Assembly: GCA_964436015.1 (NCBI GenBank) | Contig: CAYTAR010000001.1 | Location: 28,321-92,320, forward strand | Origin: an uncultured Candidatus Saccharibacteria bacterium | Lineage (GTDB): Bacteria > Patescibacteriota > Minisyncoccia > Phycocordibacterales > GCA-2401445 | DNA length: 64,000 nt | Direction of reading: 5' to 3' | Shown: positions 7,029 to 49,772 of the stretch, one piece after another | How positions within the stretch are numbered: the stretch's first letter is position 1 | Layout of the letters: the number at the start of each line of letters is the position of its first letter | Position numbers and translations under genes: made by a program | The notes under the pieces: generated by a model | Told to the model about the DNA's origin: nothing | The model's database searches: none | The model's input: the letters and a program-made list of their open reading frames with translations, nothing else

Positions 7029-8147
7029 TTAGTTTTGTGTAAAGAGGGGGACGACAAGTTTGTTGTTGTCTGGATTATCTCCCGAAACCTGTTTGCCAGG
7101 GTCAACATTTATAGTTACTGCTTTTTCACCCGCGGTGACTTGATCAAATGCAATAGTAAATTCAATTCTTTCCCCTGGATTGAGTGATTGTTGTGTATCA
7201 GAGGTATACATGTATGCAGGGTAGGTAGGAAGCTGTGCGCTAAAGTACCAGTTGTTTGCACGTGCAGTTCCTGTGTTTGTTACTTCAAAGCGAATCGCTA
7301 CTCGATCTACACGAGAGAAGCTCGTTGTTGCAGTGTACTCATTAGTAAGTCGGTCAAGTGTTCCAGTATCTAAAAGCTTTGGCTCAAGCTCGGGCTTTCC
7401 ACCAGGAACAGCAGTTGGTGTAGTGTTTGGAACAGGGATTCGTATTACTGTTTCAACAGGTGTTTGCTCAAGTGGCTGTGTTGGTGATTGAGTGCTCTGG
7501 CTTACAGGGAGAGCTATTACTTCTTCAGTAGCATCGGTTGAGGTACTAAAGAGAGAATCAGTATTGAGTGAATTTGAATCACTGCTAGTTGATGTACCGC
7601 TATTCGTTGTTGCAGGTAGAGATTCATTTGTAACAGTAATGGTGTTTGTGCCTCTCACCACAATGGTTGCGCCATCAAAGTAGCTTACAAACACAGATAC
7701 TTCAGCGTTCTGAATAGCTGGTGATGAAAGCGTAACTTGAATAGGCATACTAATATCCTTTATCCTGTAGTATGACCCACAACGTACTTGTTCTTCTGTC
7801 GGACTAAAGATTGCAGTAGGGTCAATTCTGTACGTAACATCAGTTACGCATCCAAATGCTATTGCATAGACTCCATCATCTGATGATGGGTTGTTGTGTA
7901 CGACACTTATTGTTGAACTTCCGCCGGTCTCAAGTAGGGAAGGGTTGACGTTAATCGTAATAGATTCTTCATTACCTGAGAAAAGATTTGTAATGAGAGC
8001 TATACTTCTTTCTGCAATTGAGGCAAGAGTAGGGGATGTTTTAGTTAGAATAATTCCCCAAAAACCTATAGCAAAAAACGCAATAACTACCACACTGGTG
8101 ATAAGTGCAATTTTCGCACGTTTTTCTGTTTTTTCTTTGTTTTCCAT
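7029..8147 (-). CDS. Membrane-anchored secreted protein with Ser/Thr-rich linker (cell-surface protein, unknown function)
   Basis: N-terminal TM (ALITSVVVIAFFAIGFWGIIL), long S/T-rich low-complexity region, beta-rich C-terminal domain; no homolog recognised. Confidence 0.55.
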   Translation of the reverse strand: MENKEKTEKRAKIALITSVVVIAFFAIGFWGIILTKTSPTLASIAERSIALITNLFSGNEESITINVNPSLLETGGSSTISVVHNNPSSDDGVYAIAFGCVTDVTYRIDPTAIFSPTEEQVRCGSYYRIKDISMPIQVTLSSPAIQNAEVSVFVSYFDGATIVVRGTNTITVTNESLPATTNSGTSTSSDSNSLNTDSLFSTSTDATEEVIALPVSQSTQSPTQPLEQTPVETVIRIPVPNTTPTAVPGGKPELEPKLLDTGTLDRLTNEYTATTSFSRVDRVAIRFEVTNTGTARANNWYFSAQLPTYPAYMYTSDTQQSLNPGERIEFTIAFDQVTAGEKAVTINVDPGKQVSGDNPDNNKLVVPLFTQN

Positions 8148-34115: not shown

Positions 34116-34520
34116 GTGGGTTTACACATTGCAGGTGTTGTTGTATACGGCGGAGTTCTGTTTACAAGTAAAAACAGATACTCCAGATTAATGGAGCACT
34201 TATGCTCTCCTCCGCATGAAGTGAGTCGCGAATACGAAGTACTACTTATTGCGAGAAATCTTAACCTGGGAATTCTTTCTCTACTGTCAATGCGCGAAAG
34301 TGAGTTACGACGACTAGTTGATGCTTGCTTGTTCTCCATCACTCAGGAGATACTTCGGATTGAAAATGAAGGAAAGAGAGCTGGCTCATCTTATTCCGAA
34401 CTGCGAGAAGAGTTTGCTCAGAAGCATCGTTTATTCTTGAAATACGAACTTGCAGGAGAAGATTGGGGATATTATTTCAGAAAGGCGGAAATGCTTCTCA
34501 GTCGACCACTTGAATCTTAA
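34116..34520 (+). CDS. Hypothetical protein (region 33854-34520 has two overlapping frames; possible degraded gene)
   Basis: ORF ends 8 nt before a strong terminator; upstream ORF 33854-34171 in another frame; no family recognised. Confidence 0.3.
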   Translation: MGLHIAGVVVYGGVLFTSKNRYSRLMEHLCSPPHEVSREYEVLLIARNLNLGILSLLSMRESELRRLVDACLFSITQEILRIENEGKRAGSSYSELREEFAQKHRLFLKYELAGEDWGYYFRKAEMLLSRPLES

Positions 34521-34527
34521 GTGGTTA

Positions 34528-34560
34528 GCAAAACCCAAGCGCATGCGCTTGGGTTTTTTC
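34528..34560 (+). terminator. Rho-independent terminator
   Basis: aaacccaagcgcatgcgcttgggttttttc: 11-bp stem cccaagcgcat/atgcgcttggg plus T-run. Confidence 0.75.
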
Positions 34561-34779: not shown

Positions 34780-35060
34780 TCAGCCGGCGAGCGTGTTTGG
34801 TTTTCCTTTACGGTGAAGTATTAGCTTTTGCGCGAACCCACTTTGCACGCGCGGAGCGCGTGGTGACTTGAAACTGCGTCTTACGCTCCGATTGCGTGGA
34901 AATGCTAACCAATGCGGCTCGGCCGCGCGCGCCTTGCTCGCGCGGGGCAAAACCCAAAAATTTCCTTTTCATTTTTTGTCGGCCCCCCACACACCCGCCG
35001 CGAAGCGGAAGATTTGAAAGGAAAGAAATTTTATGGTTTTACTGCCGCCGCTTCAATTTC
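34780..35060. other. GC-rich (~60% GC) non-coding segment with multiple GC stems in an otherwise AT-rich locus; unidentified (candidate structured RNA or foreign remnant)
   Basis: Runs such as ggctcggccgcgcgcgccttgctcgcgcgggg, ggccccccacacacccgccgcgaagcgg; ORFs here are Arg-rich artefacts. Confidence 0.4.
34812..34847 (-). repeat. Left copy of 36-bp inverted repeat (32/36 identical to 41445-41480 in opposite orientation)
   Basis: + strand ggtgaagtattagcttttgcgcgaacccactttgca = reverse complement of tgcaaagtgggttcgcgcaaaagctaatacttcacc; right copy tgcgaagtgggttcgcgcaaaggctaatacatcacc. Confidence 0.85.
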
Positions 35061-35068
35061 AACATACT

Positions 35069-35115
35069 TGTAATATATTACATTATTGTCATAGGACACA
35101 ATATTTGGCTATAAT
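35069..35115 (+). promoter_or_regulatory. Promoter of XRE-led operon (-35 TTGTCA 35086-35091, -10 TATAAT 35110-35115) overlapped by a 14-bp perfect palindrome TGTAATATATTACA (35069-35082), candidate XRE operator
   Basis: Direct reading. Confidence 0.5.
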
Positions 35116-35121
35116 ACATCT

Positions 35122-35334
35122 GTGAATATGAAAACCCCAACATCCAAACTTAGCAAGAACATCAAGCGAATACGCGAGCAAAAAGAAATGACACAAGGTG
35201 ATATTTGTCGTGCGGTCGGGCTTGATCGTGCTCAAATGAGCAACATTGAAGCGGGCAAAGGCAATCCCACGCTTGCCACTATTGAGAAAATCGCCCAAGC
35301 GTTGGGAGTATCAAGTGACGAGCTTTTGAAATAA
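35122..35334 (+). CDS. XRE-family helix-turn-helix transcriptional regulator (70 aa)
   Basis: Canonical HTH_3: LSKNIKRIREQKEMTQGDICRAVGLDRAQMSNIEAGKGNPTLATIEKIAQALGVSSDELL. Confidence 0.85.
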   Translation: MNMKTPTSKLSKNIKRIREQKEMTQGDICRAVGLDRAQMSNIEAGKGNPTLATIEKIAQALGVSSDELLK

Positions 35335-35338
35335 ATTT

Positions 35339-36409
35339 ATGAAGAAATCTAAAAAAATAAAAGTTGCGCTTGTTGGTATAGGAAATTGCGCAAGTTCTCT
35401 TGTTCAAGGTGTTTCATTTTATTCAAGATCAGAAAATACGACAGTCGGGTTAATGCATCCCAATTTTGCCGGATTTAAGGTGTCTGATATTGAATTTGTT
35501 ACCGCGTTTGATGTCGATAAAAGAAAAGTGGGAAAAGATCTCGCAGAAGCAATATTTCAAAAACCTAACTGTGCCAAGAAGTTTCAAGGGGTTGAACTAT
35601 TAAATATCAAGGTATTGAAGGGACACGTTTTAGATGGTGTAGCACCTCATATGCAAGAATACTTTATTGTCGATGACGAACAGAAATCAGTTGACATTGC
35701 GCAGGAATTACATAAAAGCGGCGCAGAAATGCTCATCTCTTATTTACCAGTGGGTAGTGCTGAAGCGTCGAGATTTTATGCTAATGAGGCAATAAAGGCT
35801 GGAGTCGGATTTATTAACGCTATTCCTGAATTTATTTGTTCTAAGCCAGAATGGATAGCTAAATTTAAAGAAAAAGGAATACCTTGTGCTGGTGATGATA
35901 TAAAATCACAATTTGGCGCAACTATTTTGCATAGGATTGTAACAAGATTTATTGAAGATCGTGGACATAAGATTGATAACACATATCAATTAAATATCGG
36001 CGGGAATACAGATTTTTTAAACATGAAAGATGAAAGTCGATTGGCTTCAAAAAGATTATCAAAAACGAATGCGGTGACTTCAATACTTGGAGAAAAAGAG
36101 TTCGGGGTTCGAATTGGTCCTAGTGATTACATACCACACCTTAATGACAATAAAATTTGCTATATAAATGTTAAAGGTAAACAATTTGGAGGACTACCTT
36201 TTGAATTAGATATTAAATTAAGTGTTGAAGATAGCCCGAATAGTGCTGGTGTTATGATAGATGTTATTAGAGCCATGAGAGTTGCCCTTGATTGTGGAAT
36301 CTCGGGAAACTTAGAAGCAATTAGTGCATACTATTTTAAGTCACCAGAAGTTCAATATAGAGACGATATTGCTAGGACAATGGTTGAAGACTTTATCAAT
36401 TTTAATTAA
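35339..36409 (+). CDS. ino1: myo-Inositol-1-phosphate synthase (short archaeal/bacterial type, 356 aa)
   Basis: NAD-binding KVALVGIGNCASSLVQG (yeast Ino1 LVGLGGNNGSTL), QLNIGGNTDF (SYNHLGNNDG), SKRLSKTNAV (SKEISKSNVV). Confidence 0.8.
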   Translation: MKKSKKIKVALVGIGNCASSLVQGVSFYSRSENTTVGLMHPNFAGFKVSDIEFVTAFDVDKRKVGKDLAEAIFQKPNCAKKFQGVELLNIKVLKGHVLDGVAPHMQEYFIVDDEQKSVDIAQELHKSGAEMLISYLPVGSAEASRFYANEAIKAGVGFINAIPEFICSKPEWIAKFKEKGIPCAGDDIKSQFGATILHRIVTRFIEDRGHKIDNTYQLNIGGNTDFLNMKDESRLASKRLSKTNAVTSILGEKEFGVRIGPSDYIPHLNDNKICYINVKGKQFGGLPFELDIKLSVEDSPNSAGVMIDVIRAMRVALDCGISGNLEAISAYYFKSPEVQYRDDIARTMVEDFINFN

Positions 36410-36418
36410 TAAGATTTT

Positions 36419-37639
36419 ATGATTTACATACATAAAAAAGAATTATTAGAGCCTGAGTATGAATTTGTCGAACGTAAAGGTCTTGGACACCCAGACACCT
36501 TGTCGGATGCTCTTGCTGAGTTTTTGTCAGTTAACTATTCAAACTATACTCTGAAGAATTTCGGCGCAGTCTTACATCATAATTTTGATAAAGTTGGATT
36601 ACTTGGAGGTGCTTCATTTGTAAAATTTGGTGAGGGATACTTAACAAAACCTATAAGAGTATTACTTAACGGTCGCGCTTCAACAAAATTCGGGGATAAA
36701 AATATTCCTGTTGAAGATTTGTTAAAATCTTGGGTTAGTGAATTTCTGCTAAACAAATTTAGAGATCTAATAAAAGAAAGTGATCTGGAAATTCATTATA
36801 ATTTAAGTACTCAAAGTAGCCCTGGTAAAACTGAAGACTTTAAGTCTACAAATACTCCTCGAAAGTTTTGGTTTGAACCAAGAAATTTTGACGATCTTCC
36901 GGAGACTAAAAAATTATTCTCCAATGATACTTCTTTGGGTGTAGGTTACGCTCCTCATTCTAAATTAGAGAGACTTGTTTTAGATATTGAAGAAACTTTA
37001 AACTCTAAGAGTTTTAAAAAGGATCATCCGTGGATAGGATCCGATATTAAAATAATGGGCACGAGGCATGGTCAGCAGTTTGGTATAACTTTATGCATAC
37101 CGCAAATAGCTAACTACGTACATTCGGTTGATGAATATAGACAAAATTTAGAGCAGACTAAACAAGTTATTTTCAGGATTTCTCAAAATGTTGGAATAAA
37201 TAATCTTGAGTTATCGTGTAATACTCGTGATAATTTAGAGACAAAAGAACTTTATCTTACGGCGATCGGTTCATCAATAGAAAGCGGTGATGAAGGTTTG
37301 GTTGGTAGAGGGAATAGAGTAAACGGGATAATTTCACCTACAAGACTTATGAGCATGGAAGGGGCTTGCGGTAAAAATCCTGTTTATCATATCGGCAAGA
37401 TTTACTATGTGGCTGCCAACGAGATTAGTAAAAAAATATTTGAAAAGTTTGGCGTCGCAAATGAAGTTTCTTTGATTAGCCAAAGTGGCCGAGATTTACT
37501 TGATCCATGGAAGACCTTCGTTACTTTATACAATTCAGATATAAGCGAAGAACTGGTTCTGATTTTTGTTGAAAACGAGTTAAAAAATATTCCAGAAATA
37601 ACCAGAGGCCTATTAGAGAATAAATTAAGGCTATTTTAA
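36419..37639 (+). CDS. mat: S-adenosylmethionine synthetase, archaeal type (PF01941-like), 406 aa
   Basis: Near-colinear with archaeal MAT: [79 protein letters not shown]; lacks bacterial MetK GHPDKIxDQISD and GGGAFSGKD motifs. Confidence 0.85.
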
Positions 37640-37650
37640 ATTTTAATGTT

Positions 37651-38775
37651 ATGGAAAAGATGCCTAATCAAGAAAAAGAAATAACAAGACTGGAATATTT
37701 GACTACCCATGTTGGTCTAGTCAGGCAACTTGATGAAAAATATTTGCTTGATGAGAAAGTATATTCAACAGATATTCAAAATGAAAGCTTATTAGAACAC
37801 ATACCGACAATTAAGCCGGATAGAGTGATTAGACAGGAAGGAGACACGACTATTTTTACTTCAGCTGGTATTCAGCACCTTGAAACTCTTGAACGTGACA
37901 AAATTAATTTAGAAAGGGAGAAGTTCAAAATTGCACAACCGGTTGTTCGCAGTCAGTTTATGGATAAGATCAAAGAAGGTTATTCGACATCTTTTATAGA
38001 TGAGGCCACCACTCAACTCGGAGTATCTGATGAAGATTTTTTTAGTATGTGTAAACAAATGGTAATCAATTCGTTAAATCATGATGCGGATATACAAAAA
38101 TACCATTTAACAATTGAGGCTCAGGATGATCGTTGGGGTCAAAAAAAGTTCACCAAATTAGTCGTTACTTTGTATTATGATGGGAACGAAGTGTCAGAAG
38201 GTGTATATATAGATAAATTTCCTAAAATTGATGGGCAGACTGTCTCTGTTGCCGAAACAACCCACAGCGCCGAAAGATTTAATTGGATTCACAGAGAAAA
38301 TCGAGACCGACCATATTTTATTGGCTTTGAAGAATTCTATAATACTGATAATAAAGATGATGTCGCAAGAATTATAGATCCCGTCAGAACTGCTACATTG
38401 ATGCTCATGCAAGGAGTTGTTCCATCACATAAGGATCCCGGATTCAGATTAAGACAGCTGATTAAAAGATTTGTGGAAAGAAATGCCGAGACTTCTTTTT
38501 CTGAAGATAGACTTTTAAATTTATCACATGATTTTTGGTTAGGAAATAACGTTGAAGGAATTGTTGATAAGGTCGAGATTCGTGAATTGTTAAAGAAAGA
38601 AATGACACGTGCTCAAAATGTACACATTGTCAGTTGGGTCGAGATAAATACTGGTAAGAAAATTAAGGTTGATGTGAATCTAAGCACAGATGAATTTCTT
38701 AAAAGGATCTATTCTTCATCACCAGAGGAGATTATTGGGGTAGTAAAAAGTATTAATTTAAAAAAATATGAGTAA
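37651..38775 (+). CDS. Alanyl-tRNA synthetase catalytic-domain paralog (truncated, 374 aa; motif 3 degenerate) - putative amino acid ligase
   Basis: Colinear matches to E. coli AlaRS N-terminal region: TTIFTSAGIQ (LLFTNAGMNQ), AQPVVRSQ (SQRCVRAG), RIIDPVRTATLMLMQGVVPSHKDPGFRLRQLIKRFVER ([39 protein letters not shown]); position of DTGMGLERI occupied by ETTHSAERF; no editing or C-Ala domains. Confidence 0.7.
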   Translation: MEKMPNQEKEITRLEYLTTHVGLVRQLDEKYLLDEKVYSTDIQNESLLEHIPTIKPDRVIRQEGDTTIFTSAGIQHLETLERDKINLEREKFKIAQPVVRSQFMDKIKEGYSTSFIDEATTQLGVSDEDFFSMCKQMVINSLNHDADIQKYHLTIEAQDDRWGQKKFTKLVVTLYYDGNEVSEGVYIDKFPKIDGQTVSVAETTHSAERFNWIHRENRDRPYFIGFEEFYNTDNKDDVARIIDPVRTATLMLMQGVVPSHKDPGFRLRQLIKRFVERNAETSFSEDRLLNLSHDFWLGNNVEGIVDKVEIRELLKKEMTRAQNVHIVSWVEINTGKKIKVDVNLSTDEFLKRIYSSSPEEIIGVVKSINLKKYE

Positions 38776-39445
38776 ACTTTTTTTAAGCGGTGGTGGCGAT
38801 ATAGAGACATCTTATCCGTTCGATAGTCTATTCTTTGATTCACTGCCACAGAGCGCGAATATTCTTTATATTCCCATTGCAATGGCAACCACCATGGCTA
38901 GAACAGAAGCATCTTTTGACTGGTTTTCAAAATTGATTTCAAGTCATTCAAGTAGCGACAAACACTTGGACTTTACTGTGTGGAATACTGGAGATTCTTT
39001 ACCTATCCTACATAATTACAATGCTGTATATGTTGGTGGTGGTAATACATATAGACTCTTGATGATGTTAGAAAAACCAGGAATGCTTGATGCTCTAAAA
39101 AAATATATCAGAAATGGTGGTATCTATTATGGTGGGAGCGCCGGTGCCGTGATTGTTGGTAAAAGCTTACGGACAGTGGATGAAGAAAATTTAGAAAATT
39201 ATTCAAAGCGTGATGGTATGAATCTTATTAATAATCTTTCTATATTCCCACATTTTTCAGATAGTGAGGAGCAAAAAAATATCATTAGAAATATCTGTGG
39301 CAATTATGCTTTAACGATAGCCGCGCTTCCTGAAGGCTCAGGTCTTGTTCTCGATGAGCGAGGCATAAGTGTTTACGGTAATATGTATTTATATGAACAA
39401 GAAAAGAAAACTCTTTTTTATACATCTGGGCAAATTATCAAGTAA
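38768..39445 (+). CDS. Peptidase S51 family protein (peptidase E / cyanophycinase-like serine hydrolase)
   Basis: VYVGGGNTYRLL, nucleophile motif YGGSAGAV, His in IFPHFSD; overlaps upstream gene by 8 nt. Confidence 0.7.
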   Translation: MSKLFLSGGGDIETSYPFDSLFFDSLPQSANILYIPIAMATTMARTEASFDWFSKLISSHSSSDKHLDFTVWNTGDSLPILHNYNAVYVGGGNTYRLLMMLEKPGMLDALKKYIRNGGIYYGGSAGAVIVGKSLRTVDEENLENYSKRDGMNLINNLSIFPHFSDSEEQKNIIRNICGNYALTIAALPEGSGLVLDERGISVYGNMYLYEQEKKTLFYTSGQIIK

Positions 39446-40595
39446 TTCTGGTCATACAGCGCGATTGCGGTATGAGTTAAAGGATATCAGCAAGACGGCG
39501 GATATTTCGATTCTGTCTTTGACAAATGAGCCTGACCAATCTTTCATCAATAAAAATCCAAATATACATTTTTATGTTTTGCCGATTAAGTTTAATGGCT
39601 GGAAAGTCGTTAATTTGGGTCATATTGTAGGGCAGATAAATGAAATAATCAGCTTTTGTAAGCCAGATATTGTTATTTTGTGTGTTGAGATCTGGGATTT
39701 AATTTTAGGGTTACATAAAAAAATATCTGACAAAGTAGTGTTTTGTGCTATATGCCACGCAATGCCATTTTTGGGTTCACCCTTGAATCCAACAAAATCC
39801 TTTGAATCAGATGTAAGGAAATTTGCTAATAAGCAAACGCTAAAATACAGAAAAAACTATATTACCAAACATTACAGAGAATTTCCTAAAATTATAAACT
39901 CTGGCTTACTAATTGCAAATAATGCAACCGTTGCTTTTTATTTCAAAAATTATTTCCCGAGGTCATCGTTTTGGAGACAAGTGCCTCATGTTACAGTTGA
40001 TCCGCTTAAAACGTCTAAAACCCTAGATATTGAGTATGATTTTTGTTATATGGCGAGAATGGAGAAAGGAAAAGGAGTAGAATATCTGCAAGATTTGTTT
40101 AGCAGAATTTCAATCAAGTTGGGTAGAAAAATCAGTGTGGCAATCATGGGCAGAGCTGATGATAAGTACTCCCAAGAAGAACTTAGAGGGCTACTTGAAA
40201 GTGAAGGTGAATCTTTTTCCGTTCGTTTTTTCGGTTGGGCTGATGATAAAACCAAAGCTGAAGTGTTGAGTAAAAGTGGTTGTTTTATTTATCCGTCAAC
40301 TTACGATAATTTTCCGACAGTGGTTAATGAAGCTATGGCTCATAGCTTACCTGTGGCAATGTGGGATACTCTTTTTTATAAAGTTAACTATTCTGACATA
40401 AAGTCTGTATCTGTGGCTACTCCTTTTAATGTTGAGCATCTGGCTTCAGTGGCCGTGAATCTGTTACAAGGAAAATCTACCTTACGTCGCCATTCTATAG
40501 AATACATAAAGGAAAATGGTGGCTCCAGATCAGTCGCAAAAGATGATCTTATACTATTTGATGAGATAATTAAGCGTTATGAAAGAAATAAATAA
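39393..40595 (+). CDS. Glycosyltransferase family 4 (GT-B; MshA/PIG-A-like retaining GT); ORF track start 39369
   Basis: C-terminal GT4 signature FIYPSTYDNFPTVVNEAMAHSLPVAMWD (EX7E-type motif). Confidence 0.8.
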   Translation: MNKKRKLFFIHLGKLSSNSGHTARLRYELKDISKTADISILSLTNEPDQSFINKNPNIHFYVLPIKFNGWKVVNLGHIVGQINEIISFCKPDIVILCVEIWDLILGLHKKISDKVVFCAICHAMPFLGSPLNPTKSFESDVRKFANKQTLKYRKNYITKHYREFPKIINSGLLIANNATVAFYFKNYFPRSSFWRQVPHVTVDPLKTSKTLDIEYDFCYMARMEKGKGVEYLQDLFSRISIKLGRKISVAIMGRADDKYSQEELRGLLESEGESFSVRFFGWADDKTKAEVLSKSGCFIYPSTYDNFPTVVNEAMAHSLPVAMWDTLFYKVNYSDIKSVSVATPFNVEHLASVAVNLLQGKSTLRRHSIEYIKENGGSRSVAKDDLILFDEIIKRYERNK

Positions 40596-41352
40596 TAACT
40601 TTGAAAGAATTTTCCCGAAAAAGAATGTTATTGTAATGCTTCATGCTCACGCTGATGATGAATCTTTCTTGTCGGCTGGTACTATAAATGAATTTATAGT
40701 ACGCAATTATAATGTCTTATTGATCTATTTGGCTACAGGTCTTATTGAAGAAGAAAAAAGAACAACAATTAGACGGAAAGAGCTCACCGAAGCTTTAAAG
40801 GTCTTGGGAGTAAAAAATGTAGAGTTTCTTGAGTATTGTGAACCTAAATATACCGTAAATGGTAAACCTCTTTATTTACAATCAATAAAAGAAATTTCAA
40901 ATAACATTAGAACAATTATTGAAAAAAGAGGTATAAAACATTATACGCTTTTTTCATATGATAAAAACGGTGGCTACGGCAATAAAGATCATCTCGTAGT
41001 ACATAAGGCAGGTAGGTTGTTATTCGTAAATTCGTCACCGGTTAGTCTACTATTTGAGATGACAATCCCAAGAGATGTATACTTGCGTTGGATCGGAAAA
41101 TATAAAAATAATGTTCCTGAATTATATTTACCGAAACTAAATTACTGGTCTACAGAATTTGGACTAAAAAACGAAGAGATTGATTATTTTTTTTTATTAA
41201 ACTCTCTACAAATAAAATTAAAGAAAAAAGCTCTTAGTAAACATGTCTCACAAATAAAGAATAAGGAATTCCCATTATCTCTCACTAATGCCGATTTTAT
41301 AGAATTATTCGGTAGAGAATATTTTGCTTATATTGATACATCGATTCTGTAA
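40579..41352 (+). CDS. PIG-L/LmbE-family N-acetylglucosaminyl deacetylase (MshB/BshB-like)
   Basis: VIVMLHAHADDESFLSAGTI (AHPDDE motif), GNKDHLVVHKAG (HxDH zinc ligands); overlaps upstream gene by 17 nt. Confidence 0.8.
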   Translation: MKEINNNFERIFPKKNVIVMLHAHADDESFLSAGTINEFIVRNYNVLLIYLATGLIEEEKRTTIRRKELTEALKVLGVKNVEFLEYCEPKYTVNGKPLYLQSIKEISNNIRTIIEKRGIKHYTLFSYDKNGGYGNKDHLVVHKAGRLLFVNSSPVSLLFEMTIPRDVYLRWIGKYKNNVPELYLPKLNYWSTEFGLKNEEIDYFFLLNSLQIKLKKKALSKHVSQIKNKEFPLSLTNADFIELFGREYFAYIDTSIL

Positions 41353-41444
41353 GGTGTCACTAACTTGACCGAAGCACAGAGCGAACATGAAGAAAGCACC
41401 GGAGAGGCTCTGTGAACGAATGTGAGCGGCGAGTGCAAGGTGCT

Positions 41445-41480
41445 TGCGAAGTGGGTTCGCGCAAAGGCTAATACATCACC
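41445..41480 (+). repeat. Right copy of 36-bp inverted repeat (pairs with 34812-34847), followed by weak hairpin/T-run 41487-41512
   Basis: tgcgaagtgggttcgcgcaaaggctaatacatcacc; lies in 5' leader of helicase gene. Confidence 0.85.
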
Positions 41481-41538
41481 AATCAACCCGTCAGAATGGC
41501 GGGTTTTTTTGCGCGAGGATACAAGGTATACTACTGCA

Positions 41539-44451
41539 ATGAGTACTGAATTTGAGAAACGGTATAAATCCCTTAATACCGAGCAGAGGTCCGCCGTTGA
41601 TACTACAGAGGGACCAGTAATGGTTGTAGCAGGTCCAGGAACGGGCAAAACTACGATATTAACGCTCCGAATTGCAAACATACTCCGTACTACCGATACG
41701 CCTCCACACGCTATTCTAGCAATTACCTACACTGACGCTGGTGTACGTGCAATACGTAAGAAGCTAACTGAAATTATAGGTGACCGAGCTGCAGAGGTGG
41801 CCATACACACATTTCACAGTTTTTCCCATTCAGTGCTCACAGAGTTCAAAGACCATGTTCCTCATGTAAGTGAAAGTGAGCAAATGAATGATACAGAGAT
41901 TGAGCACATGATTCACTCAATCCTTGATAAAAAAAAGTATGCAATTCTTAGACCGCTCGGACGCCCAGATCTCTATGTAAACGACATTATTCGTGGTATC
42001 AGCTCTCTAAAAAAGGACGCTATTTCTCCTGATGACTTGCGAACATTTGCGAGGAGGGGGATTGAAATGGTTTCTACAAGTGAAGATTCAATTTCAACTC
42101 GTGGAAAATCAAAAGGGTCGCTTAAGGCAGAAGCTAAAAAGCAAATTCAAAAATACGAAAAGACGCTACTTCTTGCAGATATGTATCAAGAATACGAAGA
42201 GAGAAAAAGAGAGGAATCACGCATTGACTACGATGATCTAATCCTTGAATTACTCGCCGTGTTCTCTCAAGACGAGTTATTGCTTCAGTTACTCCAAGAA
42301 AAGTTTTTGTATGTACACATAGATGAGCATCAGGATACAAATGATTCGCAAAATCTGATACTCCAAAGTATTATTTCTTTTTTTACAACACCAAATATTT
42401 TTATTGTTGGAGATGAGAAACAAGCAATATACCGTTTTCAAGGCGCATCGGTAAAAAACTTTTTACATTTTTCTGAAAAGTATCCTACTATTCAAACCAT
42501 TCCACTTACTCATAACTATCGTTCTAATCAACGCATCCTTGATGCATCACATGCGGTCATAATGCACAACTACACCGAAGCTAATTCTGCTACACTACTC
42601 ATTCCACTTACCGGCTCAAAAACTGAAGCCCCTACACAACCACTTACGGTTATCACTGGAGGAACTGAAGGAGACACGTTGTCTGCGCTTGTTGAAGATA
42701 TTACTCTTAAGCCCGATCAAGAAACGGTGGCTGTAATTGTAAGAAAGAATGCTGAAGTTGACTCTCTGCTTTCATTTTTGCAAGCACGCGGAGTATCTGC
42801 GTCTGCAGAAAGGGGAGTTGATATTCTTTCACACCCGCTCACTCTGTTGTTTTTTGCATTACTTCGTGTCGCGGTCGACTCAAGCGATACGGAAGCGCTC
42901 GCTATAACGGTGTCACATGGCTTGTGGAACCTTTCATTCGCGGATTCAGTGGTAGCGCTTTCACTAATAAAGAAAGGTGATACGGAAAGTGTTGTGCAGA
43001 TGATTCCACAATTAAAGTTAATCACAAAAGAAAAAACAAAGGAGGGGGTTATCTCATTTCTTATCTACCTCGCTGAAGTAAGTACATTTCTTGCAAAAGT
43101 AACCGCGCATCCTCTTTCCTCCGAAGTGTGGCGAAATATTCTCACATTAAGTGAACATATTGCGACTGCAAAGAAAACGCGTGATCCACATACAGTTGTG
43201 TCACACTTGCTTTCATATCAAGGAGGTAAGCGAGTTAAGAAAATTTTTTATACCGTTGGAGCGGAATCCGCCCGCGTATTTGTTATGACTGCGCACGGAA
43301 GTAAGGGGCTGGAGTATGATCATGTGTATATACCATACGCCACTGAAGAATCGTGGATACGAACCAAGACTCATGCGGAGTTCTTTATACTTCCAAGTAC
43401 GGGTTTTGATAGTCATCATTTACAAGACGAAAGGCGCCTATTTTATGTCGCGCTTACTCGCGCACGAAAGACAGTAACGTTTGGTTGTATGGAAAGAATG
43501 AATGATGGACGTACTGTCTCTCCATTGCGTTTTATTTCTGATATTCCCAATGAGCTTGTTGTTAACAAAACTGCACCTTATACGACGGCATATACCTTGC
43601 ATACTACTCACGGAAACTATGAATACGCAGAAAAAGAAATTCGTGATTATACAGAACAAGTGTTGCGTTCAAAAGGTATTTCAGTAACCGCTCTGAATCA
43701 CTTCATGGACTGTCCGAGAAAATTTTACTATCAAAGTATTCTTAAAATTCCTCACCCTCCGAATCCTAGTTCTGAAAAGGGAAATGCGATGCACCATGCA
43801 ATATCAGCAGTATGGAATACAAAAAAATTCTCAGAACGTGCAATTCTTGAAACGCTAGATTCATCAATACTACAGTTCCTAAAGAAATCAGATCTACGGA
43901 AAAGTGATTCTGAAGTTCTCTATGACGAGTTAGCTGAAATCATTCCTGCACTCTCAAAATCGCTCGTGGGGCACTTTAACCAAAGTGGAGTAGTTAAATC
44001 AGAGTCATGGGTAGAATCAGCATTTGTGCATAAAGGGGAGAGTTTTAAGTTGCATGGAAAAATGGACACGATAATTGAAACAGAATCAGAAATTCAGGTC
44101 TATGATTATAAAACAAAAAAAGCGATGTCTGATAACGAAATTCTTGGACTTACGAAGGGAAGTGATGGTGCATATTGGAGACAGCTTATATTCTATTCTC
44201 GACTACTCGCTGATACTAGTTCGCGTATAAAGAAAAAGGTTACCCCGTATCTCATGTTTATAATTCCAAATGAGCGTGGTGACTGTAAGACCTATACCCA
44301 CGAGATTACCAATGATGATATTTCTCGAGTTGAGGGAGAACTTACAAAGCTTATTGATTCGGTTCAAGATGGTACGTTCCTCACCATGTCTTGCAATAAA
44401 AAAGAATGCGAGTGGTGCGCTCTTTCAAGTAAGAATGACCAGAAAGACTAA
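41539..44451 (+). CDS. UvrD/PcrA-family SF1 helicase fused to C-terminal Cas4/AddB-like PD-(D/E)xK nuclease with 4-Cys cluster (ORF track start 41422 includes the repeat)
   Basis: Helicase motifs VVAGPGTGKTT (I), VHIDEHQDTNDSQ (II), IVGDEKQAIYRFQGAS (III), HNYRSNQRI (IV), HGSKGLEYDHVYIP, RRLFYVALTRARK (VI); nuclease region MDCPRKFYY...VYDYKTKK...YWRQLIFYSRLL...CNKKECEWC. Confidence 0.85.
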   Translation: MSTEFEKRYKSLNTEQRSAVDTTEGPVMVVAGPGTGKTTILTLRIANILRTTDTPPHAILAITYTDAGVRAIRKKLTEIIGDRAAEVAIHTFHSFSHSVLTEFKDHVPHVSESEQMNDTEIEHMIHSILDKKKYAILRPLGRPDLYVNDIIRGISSLKKDAISPDDLRTFARRGIEMVSTSEDSISTRGKSKGSLKAEAKKQIQKYEKTLLLADMYQEYEERKREESRIDYDDLILELLAVFSQDELLLQLLQEKFLYVHIDEHQDTNDSQNLILQSIISFFTTPNIFIVGDEKQAIYRFQGASVKNFLHFSEKYPTIQTIPLTHNYRSNQRILDASHAVIMHNYTEANSATLLIPLTGSKTEAPTQPLTVITGGTEGDTLSALVEDITLKPDQETVAVIVRKNAEVDSLLSFLQARGVSASAERGVDILSHPLTLLFFALLRVAVDSSDTEALAITVSHGLWNLSFADSVVALSLIKKGDTESVVQMIPQLKLITKEKTKEGVISFLIYLAEVSTFLAKVTAHPLSSEVWRNILTLSEHIATAKKTRDPHTVVSHLLSYQGGKRVKKIFYTVGAESARVFVMTAHGSKGLEYDHVYIPYATEESWIRTKTHAEFFILPSTGFDSHHLQDERRLFYVALTRARKTVTFGCMERMNDGRTVSPLRFISDIPNELVVNKTAPYTTAYTLHTTHGNYEYAEKEIRDYTEQVLRSKGISVTALNHFMDCPRKFYYQSILKIPHPPNPSSEKGNAMHHAISAVWNTKKFSERAILETLDSSILQFLKKSDLRKSDSEVLYDELAEIIPALSKSLVGHFNQSGVVKSESWVESAFVHKGESFKLHGKMDTIIETESEIQVYDYKTKKAMSDNEILGLTKGSDGAYWRQLIFYSRLLADTSSRIKKKVTPYLMFIIPNERGDCKTYTHEITNDDISRVEGELTKLIDSVQDGTFLTMSCNKKECEWCALSSKNDQKD

Positions 44452-46007: not shown

Positions 46008-46709
46008 ATGACATCAGAGACTACGAGATTTATGTTTGTCCTGCCGATACTGTTTCAGAGTATTATTTATATTGTTATATATATACCATTTAAGGTCTTT
46101 GCTCGTTTTAAAGTGCATGGACTAGAAGAGTTGTCTTTACAACCACAAGGGTTAATTTTTGCTCCGAATCACACCAGTGAGTGGGATCCGATACTTGTTC
46201 GTTTCGCACTTCCACTATTCTCAAGGAAGTTCAGTCCTATGTACTATGTGGCTCGGCAAAGACGTGAGTATACAGAATCAGGTTTGAGACAGTTTTTTTA
46301 TGGAGGTGTTTTTTTCAAATTAGTTGGCGGTTATCCTCGTTACTCAGGTAAAAAAAATTACAATTACTCACTGTTCAATCATATACATCTGTTAAAAAGA
46401 AAAAAAAATGTTACTATTTTCCCTGAAGGAAAAAAGTATGTTGGTGAGATTAATAGAAAAGTTCATGGAGGGGTAGCATTTCTCTCTCATGTAACCAGTA
46501 CACCAGTGATTCCTGTTGCAATCAAAGGTATAGAAAACTTCTCATTAATACGTTTCTTTTCTTTTAAAATGAGAATTTCTGTTACATTTGGAAAGCCAAT
46601 TGATCCACTTACTATTATTCCGCAAACAAATCCAGCTGTTGAAGACTACCAACTAGGTGCACAGTTTATATGGGAAAAAATTCTTGATTTACAACAGCAG
46701 AAACTATGA
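46008..46709 (+). CDS. plsC: 1-acyl-sn-glycerol-3-phosphate acyltransferase family (PlsC/OlsA-like)
   Basis: HxxxxD motif NHTSEWDP, FPEGKK motif, N-terminal TM. Confidence 0.75.
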   Translation: MTSETTRFMFVLPILFQSIIYIVIYIPFKVFARFKVHGLEELSLQPQGLIFAPNHTSEWDPILVRFALPLFSRKFSPMYYVARQRREYTESGLRQFFYGGVFFKLVGGYPRYSGKKNYNYSLFNHIHLLKRKKNVTIFPEGKKYVGEINRKVHGGVAFLSHVTSTPVIPVAIKGIENFSLIRFFSFKMRISVTFGKPIDPLTIIPQTNPAVEDYQLGAQFIWEKILDLQQQKL

Positions 46710-47458
46710 TTACAATAAAAAAACTGACTATTCTAGAGGGAAAGAATAAAAAAACAATAGAATTTGGTATAGCAAATACTCCTGAGGAATTAGAAAAAAT
46801 TTTTAAACTTAGATTTGAAGAGTACTCTAAAAGAGATTATATTTTCAATGAGCGTTACCAAGACAAAAGAGAAGTAGACTTCTATGATGGGCTTATAAGT
46901 ACAAAATATTTCTGTGCATTCCTAGAAGGAAAATTGATAGGTACTATACGGTTAATTACTGAAAAACCACTACCAACGGAACAATATTTTGATTTTACTC
47001 CTCCAGACGAAATAAAAAATCTTCCTAAAGAAAAGTTAGCAGAACTAGGTAGATTTATTGTAATTCCACCTGATCGAGACAAAAAAATTTTTTTACCAAG
47101 AAATGTAGTTTTACTTTTTTTAATAGAAGTGCTTGTCACTTACGCGAAAGAACAAGGTTTAGTGGGCGGATATGCATTTATAAAGCAGTCTTTGATTATA
47201 AAGTTAAAAAAGCTGTCTGCGCCAATTAAGCAAATACCTGTTTATAAAATGCATTATCCAGATGATGGTTCTTTATACAAGTATTTTTATCAAAAAGAAA
47301 ATCCCGTCTTTCCTTGTTATTATGTGTTAGAGGATTTTCAAAAGTACCTGAATAAATTAATTCATTCAGAATGGTTGTTCAAAAAGATAGGCATAGGTCA
47401 TTTTCAATTACGTAGCAACTTATATACTAAGTTTTTAAAAGTTTTTAAGGTATTATAA
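46706..47458 (+). CDS. GNAT-fold N-acyltransferase, N-acyl amino acid synthase / OlsB-like (putative)
   Basis: GKLIGTIRLI and ELGRFIV motifs resembling NAS/OlsB/exosortase-associated acyltransferases; start overlaps plsC stop (ATGA). Confidence 0.5.
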   Translation: MITIKKLTILEGKNKKTIEFGIANTPEELEKIFKLRFEEYSKRDYIFNERYQDKREVDFYDGLISTKYFCAFLEGKLIGTIRLITEKPLPTEQYFDFTPPDEIKNLPKEKLAELGRFIVIPPDRDKKIFLPRNVVLLFLIEVLVTYAKEQGLVGGYAFIKQSLIIKLKKLSAPIKQIPVYKMHYPDDGSLYKYFYQKENPVFPCYYVLEDFQKYLNKLIHSEWLFKKIGIGHFQLRSNLYTKFLKVFKVL

Positions 47459-47462
47459 AGGT

Positions 47463-48167
47463 ATGTTAAATGATACTTTCTGGGAAAAATATTTTTCTGT
47501 GTATGATGCCTTGAATAAATTAATACCTTATCAGGAATTATTAAATCAAATTGTCCTTTCGGCGGGAGAATTAAATGATAAAAAGATACTTGATGCGGGT
47601 TCTGGTACAGGTAATCTCTCTGTGTTGCTTTCTATGTCTGGGGCTACCGTTACGGGAATAGATTATTCTAGAGTAGGGGTATCTATACATAAATCAAAAT
47701 TGCCGAATAGTAAAGTGGTAGTTTCTAATTTGTGCGATTTGCTTCCATTCGAAAGTTCTGAATTTGATGTTGTGGTTTCAAATAATACACTTTACACGAT
47801 TCCTAGGAAGGAAAGAGAGTCTATAGCGCATGAGTTTTTTAGAGTATTAAAACCTGGTGGAAGGGTGGTTATATCTAATCTCAAAGTTAACTTTTCACCA
47901 TTAAAAATTTATATTGACCATTTACAAAAGTCTTTATCAGTAAATGGTTTCTTGAAGACAGTTTATACAGCTTGTAAACTCATACATCCTACAATTAAAA
48001 TTTTTTATTATAATAAATTAATTCAAAACGAAAACCGTAGTGGCTCATATGATTTTTTTGAAGATAATGAGCAATCAGAACTTTTAATTAGAGCCGGATT
48101 TTCGAAAATAACTCTTGTTAAAGATGTATATTCCAAGCAAGGTGAATTAGTGGTCGCTCTAAAATAA
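47463..48167 (+). CDS. Class I SAM-dependent methyltransferase
   Basis: Motif I ILDAGSGTGNLSVLL, motif post-I VTGIDYS, motif II FDVVVSNNTLY, LKPGGRVVIS. Confidence 0.8.
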   Translation: MLNDTFWEKYFSVYDALNKLIPYQELLNQIVLSAGELNDKKILDAGSGTGNLSVLLSMSGATVTGIDYSRVGVSIHKSKLPNSKVVVSNLCDLLPFESSEFDVVVSNNTLYTIPRKERESIAHEFFRVLKPGGRVVISNLKVNFSPLKIYIDHLQKSLSVNGFLKTVYTACKLIHPTIKIFYYNKLIQNENRSGSYDFFEDNEQSELLIRAGFSKITLVKDVYSKQGELVVALK

Positions 48168-49772
48168 ATGAATAGTTTTCTCAGCATTTTAATTTATTTT
48201 GTGTTAGTCACCAATGTTATATTGGGTGTTGTTATTCTTTCAAGAGGGATAAAAAATACACTTAATATACTATTCGGGATGCTTACATTTAGTGTATCTT
48301 TTTGGTGTATAAGTGTCATTGGTTTTTATTCACCTAATTTCCCACTTGAAACTAAATGGACGGCGTGGACACATCTGTTTGCATTACTAATAAGTTATAT
48401 TTTTTTCTTTTTCAGCACCCGTTTCCCCTCCAAGATGCGCATACGTAAATTAATTTACTTCATTGCCTTCATTCTATTTTTTGTAGTTGTTTATCTACTA
48501 TTTTACAGCAACATTATTGTAGGAAATACTATTGATTTTAAATATGAGGTCAACTTTGGTTACTACATCTACGCATTGATTATTTCTTTTTTCTTTTTAT
48601 CTGGCTACTATACATTTGCACTTCAGTATCGCAATCAGAGTGAACATGTAAAAAAGAATCAAATCAAATATATTTTTTTAGGCTCGTTTTTATCTTCTAT
48701 ACCAGCTATTATTACTAATCTTTTGCTTCCTGCTATAGGTATTTTTAACTATACGTGGCTTGGTCCAATATTTACAGTCTTTCTTGTGGGCTCTATCTTT
48801 ATAGCTATTTTTAGATTTCACCTCTTCAATATTAAAGTTATTATTACTGAAATAATTTCTATTTTCATAATTTCAGTTCTAACAATAGAGATGTTTTTAG
48901 CACAATCAGTTATTTCACTCCTAACAAAAACTTTTGTTTTGATGCTCTTTACTGTACTTTCTTATTTCCTTATAAGAAGTGTCTACAAAGAAGTTGAAGC
49001 AAAGGAGGAAAACTTTAAGCTTGCGGCTAATCTCTCTAAAGCAAATGCTAAACTCCGTGCGCTTGATAGGCAGAAATCAGAATTTCTTTCTATTGCGTCT
49101 CACCAAATACGAGGACCGCTCGCTTCTATCAAGGGTTACGCCTCGCTTATCTTAGAGGGGTCTTTTGGTAAGATTAATCCTAAAGCACGTGAAGCGGTTG
49201 AGCGTATCTTTAGTTCCAGTCACAACCTCGTCCTTGTGGTTAATGATTTCCTTGATGTGTCTCGAATTGATCAAGACAACATGAAGCTCACCCCGGTGTT
49301 GCTTGATTGGAGAAAGGTGGCTAAAGAAACTATTGATGAGCTCCAACCCTCAGTTGAGAAGCGTGGTCTTAAGATTAAGTTTTCAACTGACAAGAAGGTG
49401 TCCTACCCAATATATGCTGATATAGGTAAAGTAAAGCAAATAATTTCTAACCTTGTAGATAATGCTGTGAAATATACTCCAAAGGGAAGTATTGCAGTAT
49501 TCCTTGAAAAGAAAAAGGATGTATTTCGTCTTACCATTTCAGATACTGGTATTGGTATGAGTGAAGAAACAATTTCAGTATTGTTTGAAAAATTCAGTCG
49601 TGCAAAAGACGCTGGAAAAGTAAATATTATGGGCACCGGACTCGGTTTGTATGTCGTTAAGAAGCTTGCGATAATGCAAAAGGGTAAAGTGTGGGCAGAA
49701 TCAGATGGAGAAGGCAAGGGTTCTCGCTTTATAGTGGAATTTCCAATTCATACAGAAAAAAGTGCAACATAA
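48168..49772 (+). CDS. Sensor histidine kinase with 7-TM N-terminal sensor domain (orphan: no adjacent response regulator)
   Basis: HisKA H-box LSIASHQIRGPLASI; HATPase_c N-box DNAVKYT, G1 DTGIGM, G2 GTGLGLYVVKKL; start ATG immediately follows methyltransferase stop. Confidence 0.85.
   Translation: MNSFLSILIYFVLVTNVILGVVILSRGIKNTLNILFGMLTFSVSFWCISVIGFYSPNFPLETKWTAWTHLFALLISYIFFFFSTRFPSKMRIRKLIYFIAFILFFVVVYLLFYSNIIVGNTIDFKYEVNFGYYIYALIISFFFLSGYYTFALQYRNQSEHVKKNQIKYIFLGSFLSSIPAIITNLLLPAIGIFNYTWLGPIFTVFLVGSIFIAIFRFHLFNIKVIITEIISIFIISVLTIEMFLAQSVISLLTKTFVLMLFTVLSYFLIRSVYKEVEAKEENFKLAANLSKANAKLRALDRQKSEFLSIASHQIRGPLASIKGYASLILEGSFGKINPKAREAVERIFSSSHNLVLVVNDFLDVSRIDQDNMKLTPVLLDWRKVAKETIDELQPSVEKRGLKIKFSTDKKVSYPIYADIGKVKQIISNLVDNAVKYTPKGSIAVFLEKKKDVFRLTISDTGIGMSEETISVLFEKFSRAKDAGKVNIMGTGLGLYVVKKLAIMQKGKVWAESDGEGKGSRFIVEFPIHTEKSAT

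Follow-up and report, generated by a model that had tools for sequence, protein, structure and literature searches.

The archaeal methionine adenosyltransferases (MATs) belong to the family AdoMet_Synthase (PF01941), and roles have been assigned to their active-site residues from the structures of the enzymes of T. kodakarensis (TkMAT; PMC3853416) and M. jannaschii (MjMAT; PMC9298006). According to these studies, the histidine of the GHPD motif is catalytic, the histidine and asparagine of LHHN together with the asparagine of NDTS hold the methionine carboxylate, two aspartates bind the ribose, one of them also binding the α-amino group, and a tyrosine stacks on the adenine. In MjMAT, L147 and I351 form the hydrophobic pocket of the S-methyl group, and both have been mutated to alanine so that the enzyme takes bulky S-substituents (PMC9298006). 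In this work we analyzed a gene that encodes a protein of this family (the MAT-like protein) at positions 36419 to 37639, forward strand, of a 64,000-nucleotide stretch of contig CAYTAR010000001.1 of an uncultured Candidatus Saccharibacteria bacterium; this whole stretch is referred to as the window. The gene lies in an operon of seven tightly packed, co-directional genes, which encode a helix-turn-helix (HTH) protein, the inositol-3-phosphate synthase Ino1, the MAT-like protein, a paralog of the alanyl-tRNA synthetase (AlaRS) catalytic fragment that we call ALAX, a Peptidase_S51 hydrolase (S51), a GT4-family glycosyltransferase (GT4) and a PIG-L family de-N-acetylase (PIG-L). From the sequence comparisons presented here, the MAT-like protein belongs to a bacterial branch of the archaeal MAT family that had gone unrecognised and in which the substrate pocket is remodelled.

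The open reading frame (ORF), complete from ATG to stop, encodes 406 amino acids. Residues 6-401 align with positions 10-394/395 of PF01941 (E=1.8e-104, 350 bits against a cutoff of 27), and the best solved relatives are the archaeal MATs, with approximately 40% identity over the full length and E-values of ~1e-68 to 1e-73 (M. jannaschii 7p82/7p83, E ~1e-73; P. furiosus PfMAT, 6s81; S. solfataricus SsMAT, 4hpv; TkMAT, 4l4q). These matches bear out the first-pass annotation of this stretch, which had proposed a SAM (S-adenosylmethionine) synthetase of the archaeal family at this position and had suggested a profile search, which indeed places the protein within PF01941; the archaeal MAT motifs that it quoted are present in the translated ORF. 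It had also stated that the signatures of bacterial MetK are lacking, in agreement with PF01941 being the sole domain found: the MetK domains (S-AdoMet_synt_N/M/C; PF00438/PF02772/PF02773) and the motifs GHPDK and GGGAFSGKD gave no match in the protein, and a tblastn search of the 64-kb window with an approximate E. coli MetK query gave none either (best E=2). Bacterial MetK catalyses the same general type of reaction and has a three-domain fold that is distantly related to that of the MAT-like protein (PMC3853416), but the two have no detectable sequence match. Five NCBIfam equivalog models for archaeal MATs match the protein, all of them below their curated cutoffs (at most 347 bits against 435-577), the top score being 347 bits for NF003362, whose cutoff is 481. 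The ratio of nonsynonymous to synonymous substitution rates (dN/dS) of the gene against two relatives is 0.08, a value that denotes strong purifying selection, and 130 alignment columns are invariant across 16 homologs from the candidate phyla radiation (CPR). An exact-sequence lookup found nothing on record for the MAT-like protein; its closest genome match, with 96% amino-acid identity, is in a metagenome-assembled genome (MAG) of Candidatus Uhrbacteria (L011; JBDRNK01).

The family was surveyed by scanning one genome per GTDB species with an alignment of the CPR homologs, and 80 loci were kept. In a neighbour-joining tree of 85 PF01941 proteins, a bipartition into group A (44 proteins) and group B (41 proteins) was present in 100 of 100 bootstrap replicates, with the MAT-like protein in group B. 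Group A contains all the archaeal lineages and some bacteria (Aquificota, Acidobacteria, Brocadia and others). Group B consists of 35 proteins from a CPR clade and an actinomycete clade and six others, among which are sequences from Moorena, Shapirobacteria and a second Uhrbacteria type. Identity to the MAT-like protein is 34-40% for the true archaeal proteins and 44-49% for the accessory copies of actinomycetes, among them Streptomyces, Kitasatospora, Nocardia and Lentzea. A recent transfer from archaea was rejected, since these actinomycete proteins are the closest relatives outside CPR and group B forms a deep, separate branch. The first-pass annotation had remarked on a near-colinearity with archaeal MATs; the assignment to the family is correct, but the protein sits on a distinct deep branch, its nearest kin outside CPR are actinomycete proteins, and the Leu/Ile pocket is gone. 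The phylogeny with MATs that had been suggested as a check sets the protein apart from the characterised archaeal MAT lineages.

Three MAGs labelled as 'uncultured archaeon', 'Nanoarchaeota' and 'Woesearchaeota' (L014, L019 and L021) carry PF01941 proteins that nest inside the CPR clade of group B, and L019 additionally carries ALAX and S51; either these bins are misassigned or the cassette is present in DPANN archaea too. At another locus (L094, 11016-13372) the group B gene is found in two pieces of 144 and 260 amino acids with two small opposite-strand genes between them; an insertion, a gene that is split or an artefact of assembly could account for this.

The two groups share their catalytic residues and differ at the site of the S-alkyl substituent. 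The MAT-like protein has H24, H53, N55, N169, D209, Y279, D291 and the motifs GRGNR and GKNP, so that it resembles the archaeal MATs in fold family and in the GHPD, HHN, NDTS, ribose Asp, Tyr, GRGNR and GKNP elements. These positions, which comprise the catalytic His and the residues for ribose, adenine, triphosphate and the backbone of the amino acid, are identical in 44/44 group A proteins, except that the stacking Tyr is Phe in three; they are kept in all but one of the 35 CPR and actinomycete proteins of group B (the exception has E for D291), and a few of the six other group B sequences deviate. In contrast, the column of I351 holds Ile in all 44 group A proteins and in none of the 41 of group B, where it is Ser in CPR, including the MAT-like protein of the window (S356), Thr in most actinomycetes, and elsewhere Asn, Glu, Ala or Met. 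The column of L147 holds Leu in 44/44 group A proteins and Arg in 35/35 CPR and actinomycete proteins, the one of the window (R148) included; the equivalence of this column is less certain, given that it falls within the gating loop, where the sequences align poorly, and is supported by the preceding Asp, which is kept in actinomycetes (D/E-R vs D-L). The gating loop itself has 42-43 residues in the CPR and actinomycete clades of group B and 24 in group A, a difference of ~19 residues, and in those two clades it carries the motif SSPG...R-x-x-WF-x-PR...DL-x-E; the loop of the MAT-like protein lacks GSxDL. Further signatures of group B are CxPQ (vs AxA-F/M), GDEG (vs GDDG) and SQSGRxLxDPW. Within group B, the subclades vary at positions that contact the substrate: HHN vs HHQ, GDEG vs GDIG, SQSG/SATG/SQNG/GQEG, and S/T/N/E in the pocket. 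The AlphaFold2 (AF2) monomer model of the MAT-like protein is uninformative on the pocket, the gating loop (132-169) and residues 288-324 having low confidence, which is to be expected since the active site lies at the dimer interface.

From the conserved residues, the MAT-like protein is predicted to be a catalytically competent adenosyltransferase, and the dN/dS of its gene argues that it is an active enzyme. Because the residues that bind the α-carboxylate and the α-amino group are all kept, the substrate of the group B enzymes would be at least methionine-like. The change of the pocket means that, as far as the aligned sequences tell, the S-alkyl site of group B is selected differently from that of all other MATs.

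Group B genes are also distinguished by their neighbours. Profile hidden Markov models of the cassette proteins were searched against 90 loci, and the following counts refer to the loci that were assessable. ALAX was found at 11/15 loci with CPR-type group B genes, at 15/19 with actinomycete ones and at 2/6 of the others, that is, ALAX adjoins the group B gene in 28/40 loci, vs 0/44 for the archaeal-type genes of group A. S51 was present at 14/15 CPR-type loci and 2/6 of the others; it was not detected at the actinomycete loci, and was found at 0/44 loci of group A. In the reciprocal test, four of four distinct loci picked through ALAX alone have a PF01941 gene within 4 kb, each with the group B signature; other partners at these loci are radical SAM enzymes, methyltransferases, a seryl-tRNA synthetase (SerRS) paralog, a DegT aminotransferase and a phosphatase. 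The linkage is therefore bidirectional: group B loci carry ALAX, and loci picked by ALAX carry group B. The block formed by the genes of the MAT-like protein, ALAX, S51, GT4 and PIG-L, with or without Ino1, recurs at 66-96% identity of the MAT-like protein and with unrelated flanks, its carriers including a Gracilibacteria MAG and a 787-kb JGI contig, and in distant CPR members (WWE3, Parcubacteria) the MAT-like gene and S51 are followed by prolyl-tRNA synthetase (ProRS). The gene neighbourhoods of the archaeal MATs are entirely different. The position of the gene inside the operon, which had been called unusual, is not so for group B, for which such neighbourhoods are the rule; the neighbours implied at the same time were correctly identified, given that Ino1, GT4 and PIG-L do flank the MAT-like gene.

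The actinomycete loci illustrate the variety of these clusters. A Kitasatospora operon includes PF01941, an APH/fructosamine-kinase-like kinase, a SerRS paralog, GT4 and ALAX, with an HTH_31 regulator divergently upstream; in Streptomyces sp. NBC_01190 a radical SAM/SPASM gene on the opposite strand is followed, in this order, by PF01941, a UDP-GlcNAc 2-epimerase, a GMC oxidoreductase, GT4, a SerRS paralog and ALAX. At other group B loci the SAM-related neighbours are an AdoMet decarboxylase with a BpsA-type aminopropyltransferase, radical SAM enzymes and methyltransferases. Full-text literature on archaeal-type MATs (PF01941) in CPR and in Streptomyces clusters gave no description of these genes or of the cluster.

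Several of these loci have features of their own. In Kitasatospora kazusensis (L027, 3818-19491) the operon is flanked by a relaxase, an ARMT1-like phosphatase, a Dcm-type DNA methylase and an Eco29kI-like restriction enzyme, a setting that looks like a mobile or defence-island region and not a classical polyketide synthase or nonribosomal peptide synthetase cluster. The complete six-gene cassette of a Candidatus Gracilibacteria genome (L018, 8876-14983) has ORFs that appear fragmented under translation table 11; an alternative genetic code, with UGA as a sense codon, has been reported for Gracilibacteria and is consistent with this fragmentation. L092 (5456-16977) and L093 carry a radical SAM enzyme, PF01941, an ALAX::S51 fusion, a 38-aa ORF and two tRNA-synt_2b/HGTP_anticodon paralogs, and the cluster continues with a methyltransferase, a 373-aa tRNA-synt_2 paralog and a Peptidase_S66 of the MccF family; it resembles a cluster for a compound that targets an aminoacyl-tRNA synthetase (aaRS), with its immunity genes. 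An operon of Candidatus Shapirobacteria (L074, 574-10236) contains BpsA_C (branched-chain polyamine synthase-like), AdoMet decarboxylase, a PF01941 gene of group B type and a shikimate-DH-like gene.

ALAX, the hallmark partner of the group B genes, is called a 'hypothetical protein' in every source that names it. The 374-residue protein of the window (37651-38775, forward strand) gives a faint match to PF01411. Its AF2 model (pLDDT 85), compared with the PDB by means of Foldseek, retrieved as top matches only AlaRS catalytic fragments (E 1e-11 to 1e-8, TM 0.55-0.63), followed by GlyRS-alpha. The profile of the ALAX family also matches E. coli AlaRS (3hxu) by sequence (E=9e-8) in an alignment that spans FTNAGM-like, QxxVR (motif-2 R69) and DxGxGxER (D235/motif 3) segments as well as the tRNA-recognition helices, and R100, E208 and R209 of ALAX are invariant. 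The editing and C-Ala domains are absent, and TIGR00344 (alaS) gives 19 bits against a cutoff of 457. Hence ALAX resembles the AlaRS catalytic fragments (E. coli 3hxu, A. fulgidus 2ztg) in fold, motifs and tRNA-recognition helices; it differs from them in that identity is 12-16%, that it is stand-alone or, sometimes, fused to S51, GT4 or a methyltransferase, and that at the loci picked through it a group B PF01941 gene is always nearby. Sequence and model together suggest a free-standing AlaRS aminoacylation core of class IIc, with intact motifs for ATP and the amino acid and without editing or C-Ala domains, and ALAX is probably still an adenylate-forming enzyme. A HMMER search against 1.84 billion representative proteins found 175 homologs at E<=1e-30 and 325 at E<=1e-10; these ~175-325 representatives stand for clusters at 50% identity, none of which is annotated. 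Of the 150 matches listed, nearly all have 320-440 residues. Fusions were found in three of five longer proteins that were scanned, namely ALAX::S51 (P0406), ALAX::GT4 (P0399) and ALAX::class I methyltransferase (P0385), and the other two (P0365 and P0373) have ~350 extra residues with no Pfam match. ALAX is thus physically tied by gene fusions to S51 and GT4.

The remaining genes of the operon, all on the forward strand, show similarity to known families to different degrees. The first encodes an XRE-type HTH protein of 70 residues (35122-35334), and a 70-aa HTH_3/HTH_19/HTH_26 gene also precedes Ino1 in three related loci (L001-L003). Ino1 (35339-36409; PF01658, PF07994) is of the actinobacterial type: it matches M. 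tuberculosis Ino1 (1gr0) with E=3e-108 and the NCBIfam model mycothiol_INO1 with 418 bits, below the cutoff of 638, and its dN/dS is 0.04. S51 (38768-39445; PF03575, E=6e-25) is a serine hydrolase of the PepE/cyanophycinase family, with PDB matches to Lmo0363 (3l4e) and PepE (1fy2), in which the GGSAGA nucleophile elbow and the histidine of PHF are kept. A role of S51 as a glutamine amidotransferase partner of ALAX was rejected since the nucleophile is Ser in a PepE-type GGSAGA elbow and not Cys. The GT4 ORF (39369-40595; PF00534, PF13692) has a listed GTG start that overlaps S51 by 77 nt, and the true start may be further downstream; its NCBIfam matches are weak, including BshA (15.9 against 273.7), and a PDB sequence search with this protein gave no match. 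PIG-L (40579-41352; PF02585), a GlcNAc-inositol-type de-N-acetylase, is below the NCBIfam cutoffs for MshB (43 against 224) and Mca, and its best PDB match, a weak one, is MshB. A PADLOC search of the cassette proteins for known anti-phage defence systems gave no significant match, only two marginal entries for PIG-L (E=0.004 and 0.009).

Several observations indicate that the cassette has moved between genomes. The GC content of the six enzyme genes is 0.30-0.36, vs 0.38-0.44 in the surrounding core genes. The comparison of codons and GC proposed in the first-pass annotation was thus informative with regard to GC but not to codons: synonymous codon choice is the same as in the core genes, and distinct codon usage was discarded as a test of foreign origin. 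The nucleotide similarity between the window and the loci L001-3 and L011 is 89-93% and is confined to 35329/35574-41392/41453, and the flanks, with rpoD on one side and an AddA-like gene on the other, have no counterpart in those loci. The operon is bracketed by an inverted repeat of 39 nt (left arm 34812-34850, right arm 41442-41480), whose arms are 90% complementary. The left arm sits in a conserved GC-rich non-coding element of ~250-290 nt (window ~34780-35070; with stretches such as CGGCCGCGCGCGCCTTGCTCGCGCGGGGCAAAACCC and CCGCCGCGAAGCGG), which is found inverted and downstream of the cassette in L011 (~9935-10190) and in L001-3 (L001 ~7740-7930); it has no match in Rfam, and a small RNA, a repeat and a site of recombination are all conceivable. 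Just inside the arms and directly upstream of the HTH ORF, the best consensus match of the region to a sigma-70 promoter is TTGTCA-18-TATAAT (35086-35115, forward strand, 11/12), a consensus match only, the total of such sites not exceeding that expected from shuffled sequence; just outside, the best intrinsic-terminator-like hairpin of the region (41485-41505, forward strand, a 9-bp stem with a T-run) ends the operon. No transposase or integrase was found inside the unit. Taken together, these features suggest that the seven genes constitute a single transcription unit at ~34.8-41.5 kb of the window, self-contained and horizontally mobile.

We lean, by a little more than an even chance, towards the MAT-like enzyme being a pathway-dedicated adenosyltransferase of an uncharacterised mobile pathway rather than an enzyme of general housekeeping. 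This role is favoured because the gene rides in a mobile accessory cassette, because bacterial MetK is common in Microgenomates and Shapirobacteria among the CPR, because group B genes co-occur with MetK in L074 and in Streptomyces, and because the bacterial MATs of the survey with a canonical pocket are all in group A. Streptomyces species have their own MetK besides the group B copy, and in L074 a bacterial-type MetK lies 6 kb from the group B gene on the opposite strand, so that two unrelated MAT-family genes are present on one CPR contig; bacterial MetK was found at 1/90 loci, this one. The first-pass annotation had left two options, a housekeeping enzyme or a dedicated copy acquired horizontally, and the low GC, the inverted repeats and the 89-93% nucleotide identity with unrelated flanks favour the second. 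Several points weigh against a dedicated role. The cassette has no recognisable SAM consumer. Across CPR classes the MAT-like protein is 55-96% identical vs 25-45% for its neighbours, as would fit an enzyme of central metabolism, and at some CPR loci only the MAT-like gene and S51 are found, beside ProRS and DnaK and without ALAX, GT4 and PIG-L. MetK and group B PF01941 have no contig in common among the best 120 matches listed for each. The argument from the pocket is weakened, besides the doubt about the L147 column, by the group B protein of L074, which has the polar residue Asn in its pocket and is linked to AdoMet decarboxylase, and by the L147A/I351A variant of MjMAT, which still functions as a MAT (PMC9298006); in view of both, a polar pocket is compatible with SAM as the product.

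Some of these points would be accounted for if the enzyme were the sole methionine adenosyltransferase of the organism, a non-orthologous enzyme that took the place of MetK in a reduced genome of Patescibacteria, and if its proximity to the glycoside genes were mere operon packing. This we consider rather unlikely. In its favour, the window has the SAM users TrmD and a class I methyltransferase and yet no MetK was found there, the clade is highly conserved across Uhrbacteria, Paceibacteria, WWE3, Gracilibacteria and Parcubacteria, NCBI labels its members methionine adenosyltransferase, and the residues that bind the backbone of methionine are all kept. The lack of overlap between MetK and group B in the matches listed is likewise compatible with a complementary distribution, and among the best 120 MetK matches listed all the named ones are from Microgenomates or Shapirobacteria. 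Nonetheless, copies that are nearly identical (95-96% amino-acid identity) travel in a low-GC, repeat-bracketed cassette with differing flanks, other members of the subfamily are accessory copies in actinomycetes that have MetK and on a CPR contig that has it too, and the surveyed bacteria with a canonical Leu/Ile-pocket MAT (Aquificota, Acidobacteria, Brocadia and others) belong to group A rather than to B. The synteny with ALAX, in both directions, is moreover too consistent for packing.

A different possibility, which overlaps with the dedicated role and which we put forward tentatively, is that the nucleophile is not methionine and that homocysteine, an S-carboxyalkyl-homocysteine such as cystathionine, or the side-chain carboxylate of Asp is adenosylated. 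With ALAX and GT4, this would lead to an amino-acid-adenosine conjugate, for example an antimetabolite resembling an aminoacyl-adenylate, and the aaRS paralogs and S51/S66 would serve in immunity or processing. That the pocket, hydrophobic with Leu and Ile, has become cationic and polar (Arg, Ser/Thr/Asn/Glu) and differs between subclades points in this direction, as do the SerRS paralogs in the actinomycete and L096 clusters, the two class IIa aaRS paralogs, the truncated class IIb paralog and the MccF-family S66 peptidase of L092, and the fact that the actinomycetes already have MetK. The S51 enzymes PepE and cyanophycinase are aspartyl-specific hydrolases, which also counts for it. Such a reading is purely inferential, the residues that hold the α-carboxylate and the α-amino group of methionine are all kept, and the link of the group B gene of L074 to AdoMet decarboxylase suggests a genuine SAM-type sulfonium there; in that operon, the AdoMet decarboxylase and the BpsA-type aminopropyltransferase imply a SAM-type product. 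The ProRS of the CPR loci may, in turn, simply be the housekeeping enzyme. In its most developed form, which we regard as doubtful, group B, ALAX and GT4 would constitute an undescribed mobile system of Patescibacteria and actinomycetes in which the MAT-like enzyme adenosylates a polar or anionic non-methionine amino acid to give a glycosylated or aminoacylated adenosine conjugate (e.g. a mimic of an aminoacyl-adenylate that targets an aaRS), with the aaRS paralogs and S51/S66 acting in immunity or maturation. Finally, a decayed or non-catalytic homolog, as might be suspected from the scores below the NCBIfam equivalog cutoffs and the low-confidence active-site loops of the AF2 monomer model, is extremely improbable and effectively ruled out by the conservation of the catalytic and ligand residues outside the S-alkyl pocket, the dN/dS of 0.08 and the 130 columns invariant in the 16 CPR homologs.

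The operon can be compared with the biosynthesis of mycothiol, to which it is similar in its logic and in three enzyme families, with an Ino1 of the M. tuberculosis type, a GT4 glycosyltransferase (the family of MshA) and a PIG-L deacetylase (the family of MshB), in addition to a ligase derived from an aaRS. The ligase of that pathway, MshC, is however class I and CysRS-like, whereas ALAX is class II and AlaRS-like; the operon has neither a Cys ligase (MshC or BshC) nor a counterpart of the acetyltransferase MshD, the GT4 and PIG-L of the cassette are far below the equivalog cutoffs for MshA/BshA/MshB, and mycothiol biosynthesis has no counterpart of the MAT-like and S51 enzymes. By analogy, the pathway may follow a mycothiol-like logic: Ino1 would provide inositol phosphate, to which GT4 would attach GlcNAc, and PIG-L would then remove the N-acetyl group, exposing an amine. 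ALAX could activate a small amino acid as the adenylate and join it to the exposed amine or to a tRNA-like or adenosine acceptor, and S51 might trim or transfer the aminoacyl group, possibly aspartyl. The MAT-like enzyme, using ATP, would let an α-amino-acid nucleophile attack the ribose C5' with displacement of the triphosphate, and would thereby supply the adenosylated amino acid, either dedicated SAM or a SAM analogue with a polar S-substituent. The data show the family membership, the intact catalytic residues, the altered pocket, the conserved synteny, the fusions and the signs of mobility, whereas we infer in which order the steps proceed, which molecules act as acceptors and what the product is.

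Pathway-dedicated SAM synthetases occur in biosynthetic clusters, and aaRS paralogs or immunity genes of the MccF type accompany aminoacyl-nucleotide antibiotics such as microcin C and albomycin. The cassette bears a general resemblance to such clusters in having an accessory MAT-family gene in a specialised setting, and its sister clusters in their SerRS and other aaRS paralogs and S66 peptidase; nonetheless, no product, precursor peptide or known cluster type was matched for the cassette.

A dedicated or re-specialised enzyme would represent a new functional branch of a family that so far has been treated as archaeal SAM synthetase, and thousands of entries of Patescibacteria and actinomycetes named 'methionine adenosyltransferase' may then be over-annotated. 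If it were instead the sole MAT of the organism, it would be a non-orthologous replacement of MetK borne on a mobile cassette. The partnership with ALAX points to unexplored chemistry that would combine amino-acid activation, adenosyl transfer and the modification of a sugar or inositol, and in the ultra-small, host-dependent CPR bacteria the product could be a rare case of a metabolite that they make themselves, such as a thiol-like glycoside with a protective role, a signal or a toxin. Actinomycetes, which include the hosts of some CPR lineages, have the system as well, and it may be asked whether genes have been exchanged between the two. Enzyme engineers who make SAM analogues may, in addition, find the naturally altered S-alkyl pocket of interest.

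By its predicted gene content, the window comes from the core chromosome of a bacterium of the Patescibacteria (CPR): pheST, gyrB, dnaE, nusB, smc, rnr, rpsP, trmD, rpoB, rpoC, dnaG and rpoD precede the cassette, and an AddA-like helicase-nuclease gene, dsbA, uppP, aaRS genes, scpAB, mraY, ftsW and murG follow it. The AddA-like UvrD/PD-(D/E)XK ORF (41422-44451) was called from a GTG at 41422; the gene probably starts downstream of this codon because the right repeat arm and the terminator-like hairpin are inside its 5' end. Its PADLOC matches to GajB reflect the generic UvrD helicase fold. It was rejected as part of the system, given that its position is beyond the inverted repeats and the terminator, that its GC is core-like and that related cassettes lack it. 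On the other side of the cassette, only poorly supported ORFs with no Pfam match are found between 33850 and 34520, and a perfect palindrome of 14+14 nt (AAAACCCAAGCGCA/TGCGCTTGGGTTTT) followed by T's, directly after the ORF at 34116-34520, is a likely terminator (34530-34557). A second block of low GC (0.29-0.35), at 46008-49772, has genes for a PlsC-like acyltransferase, an N-acyl amino acid synthase of the FeeM type, a 7TM histidine kinase and a class I methyltransferase, and may constitute a further accessory island, devoted to an N-acyl amino acid lipid.

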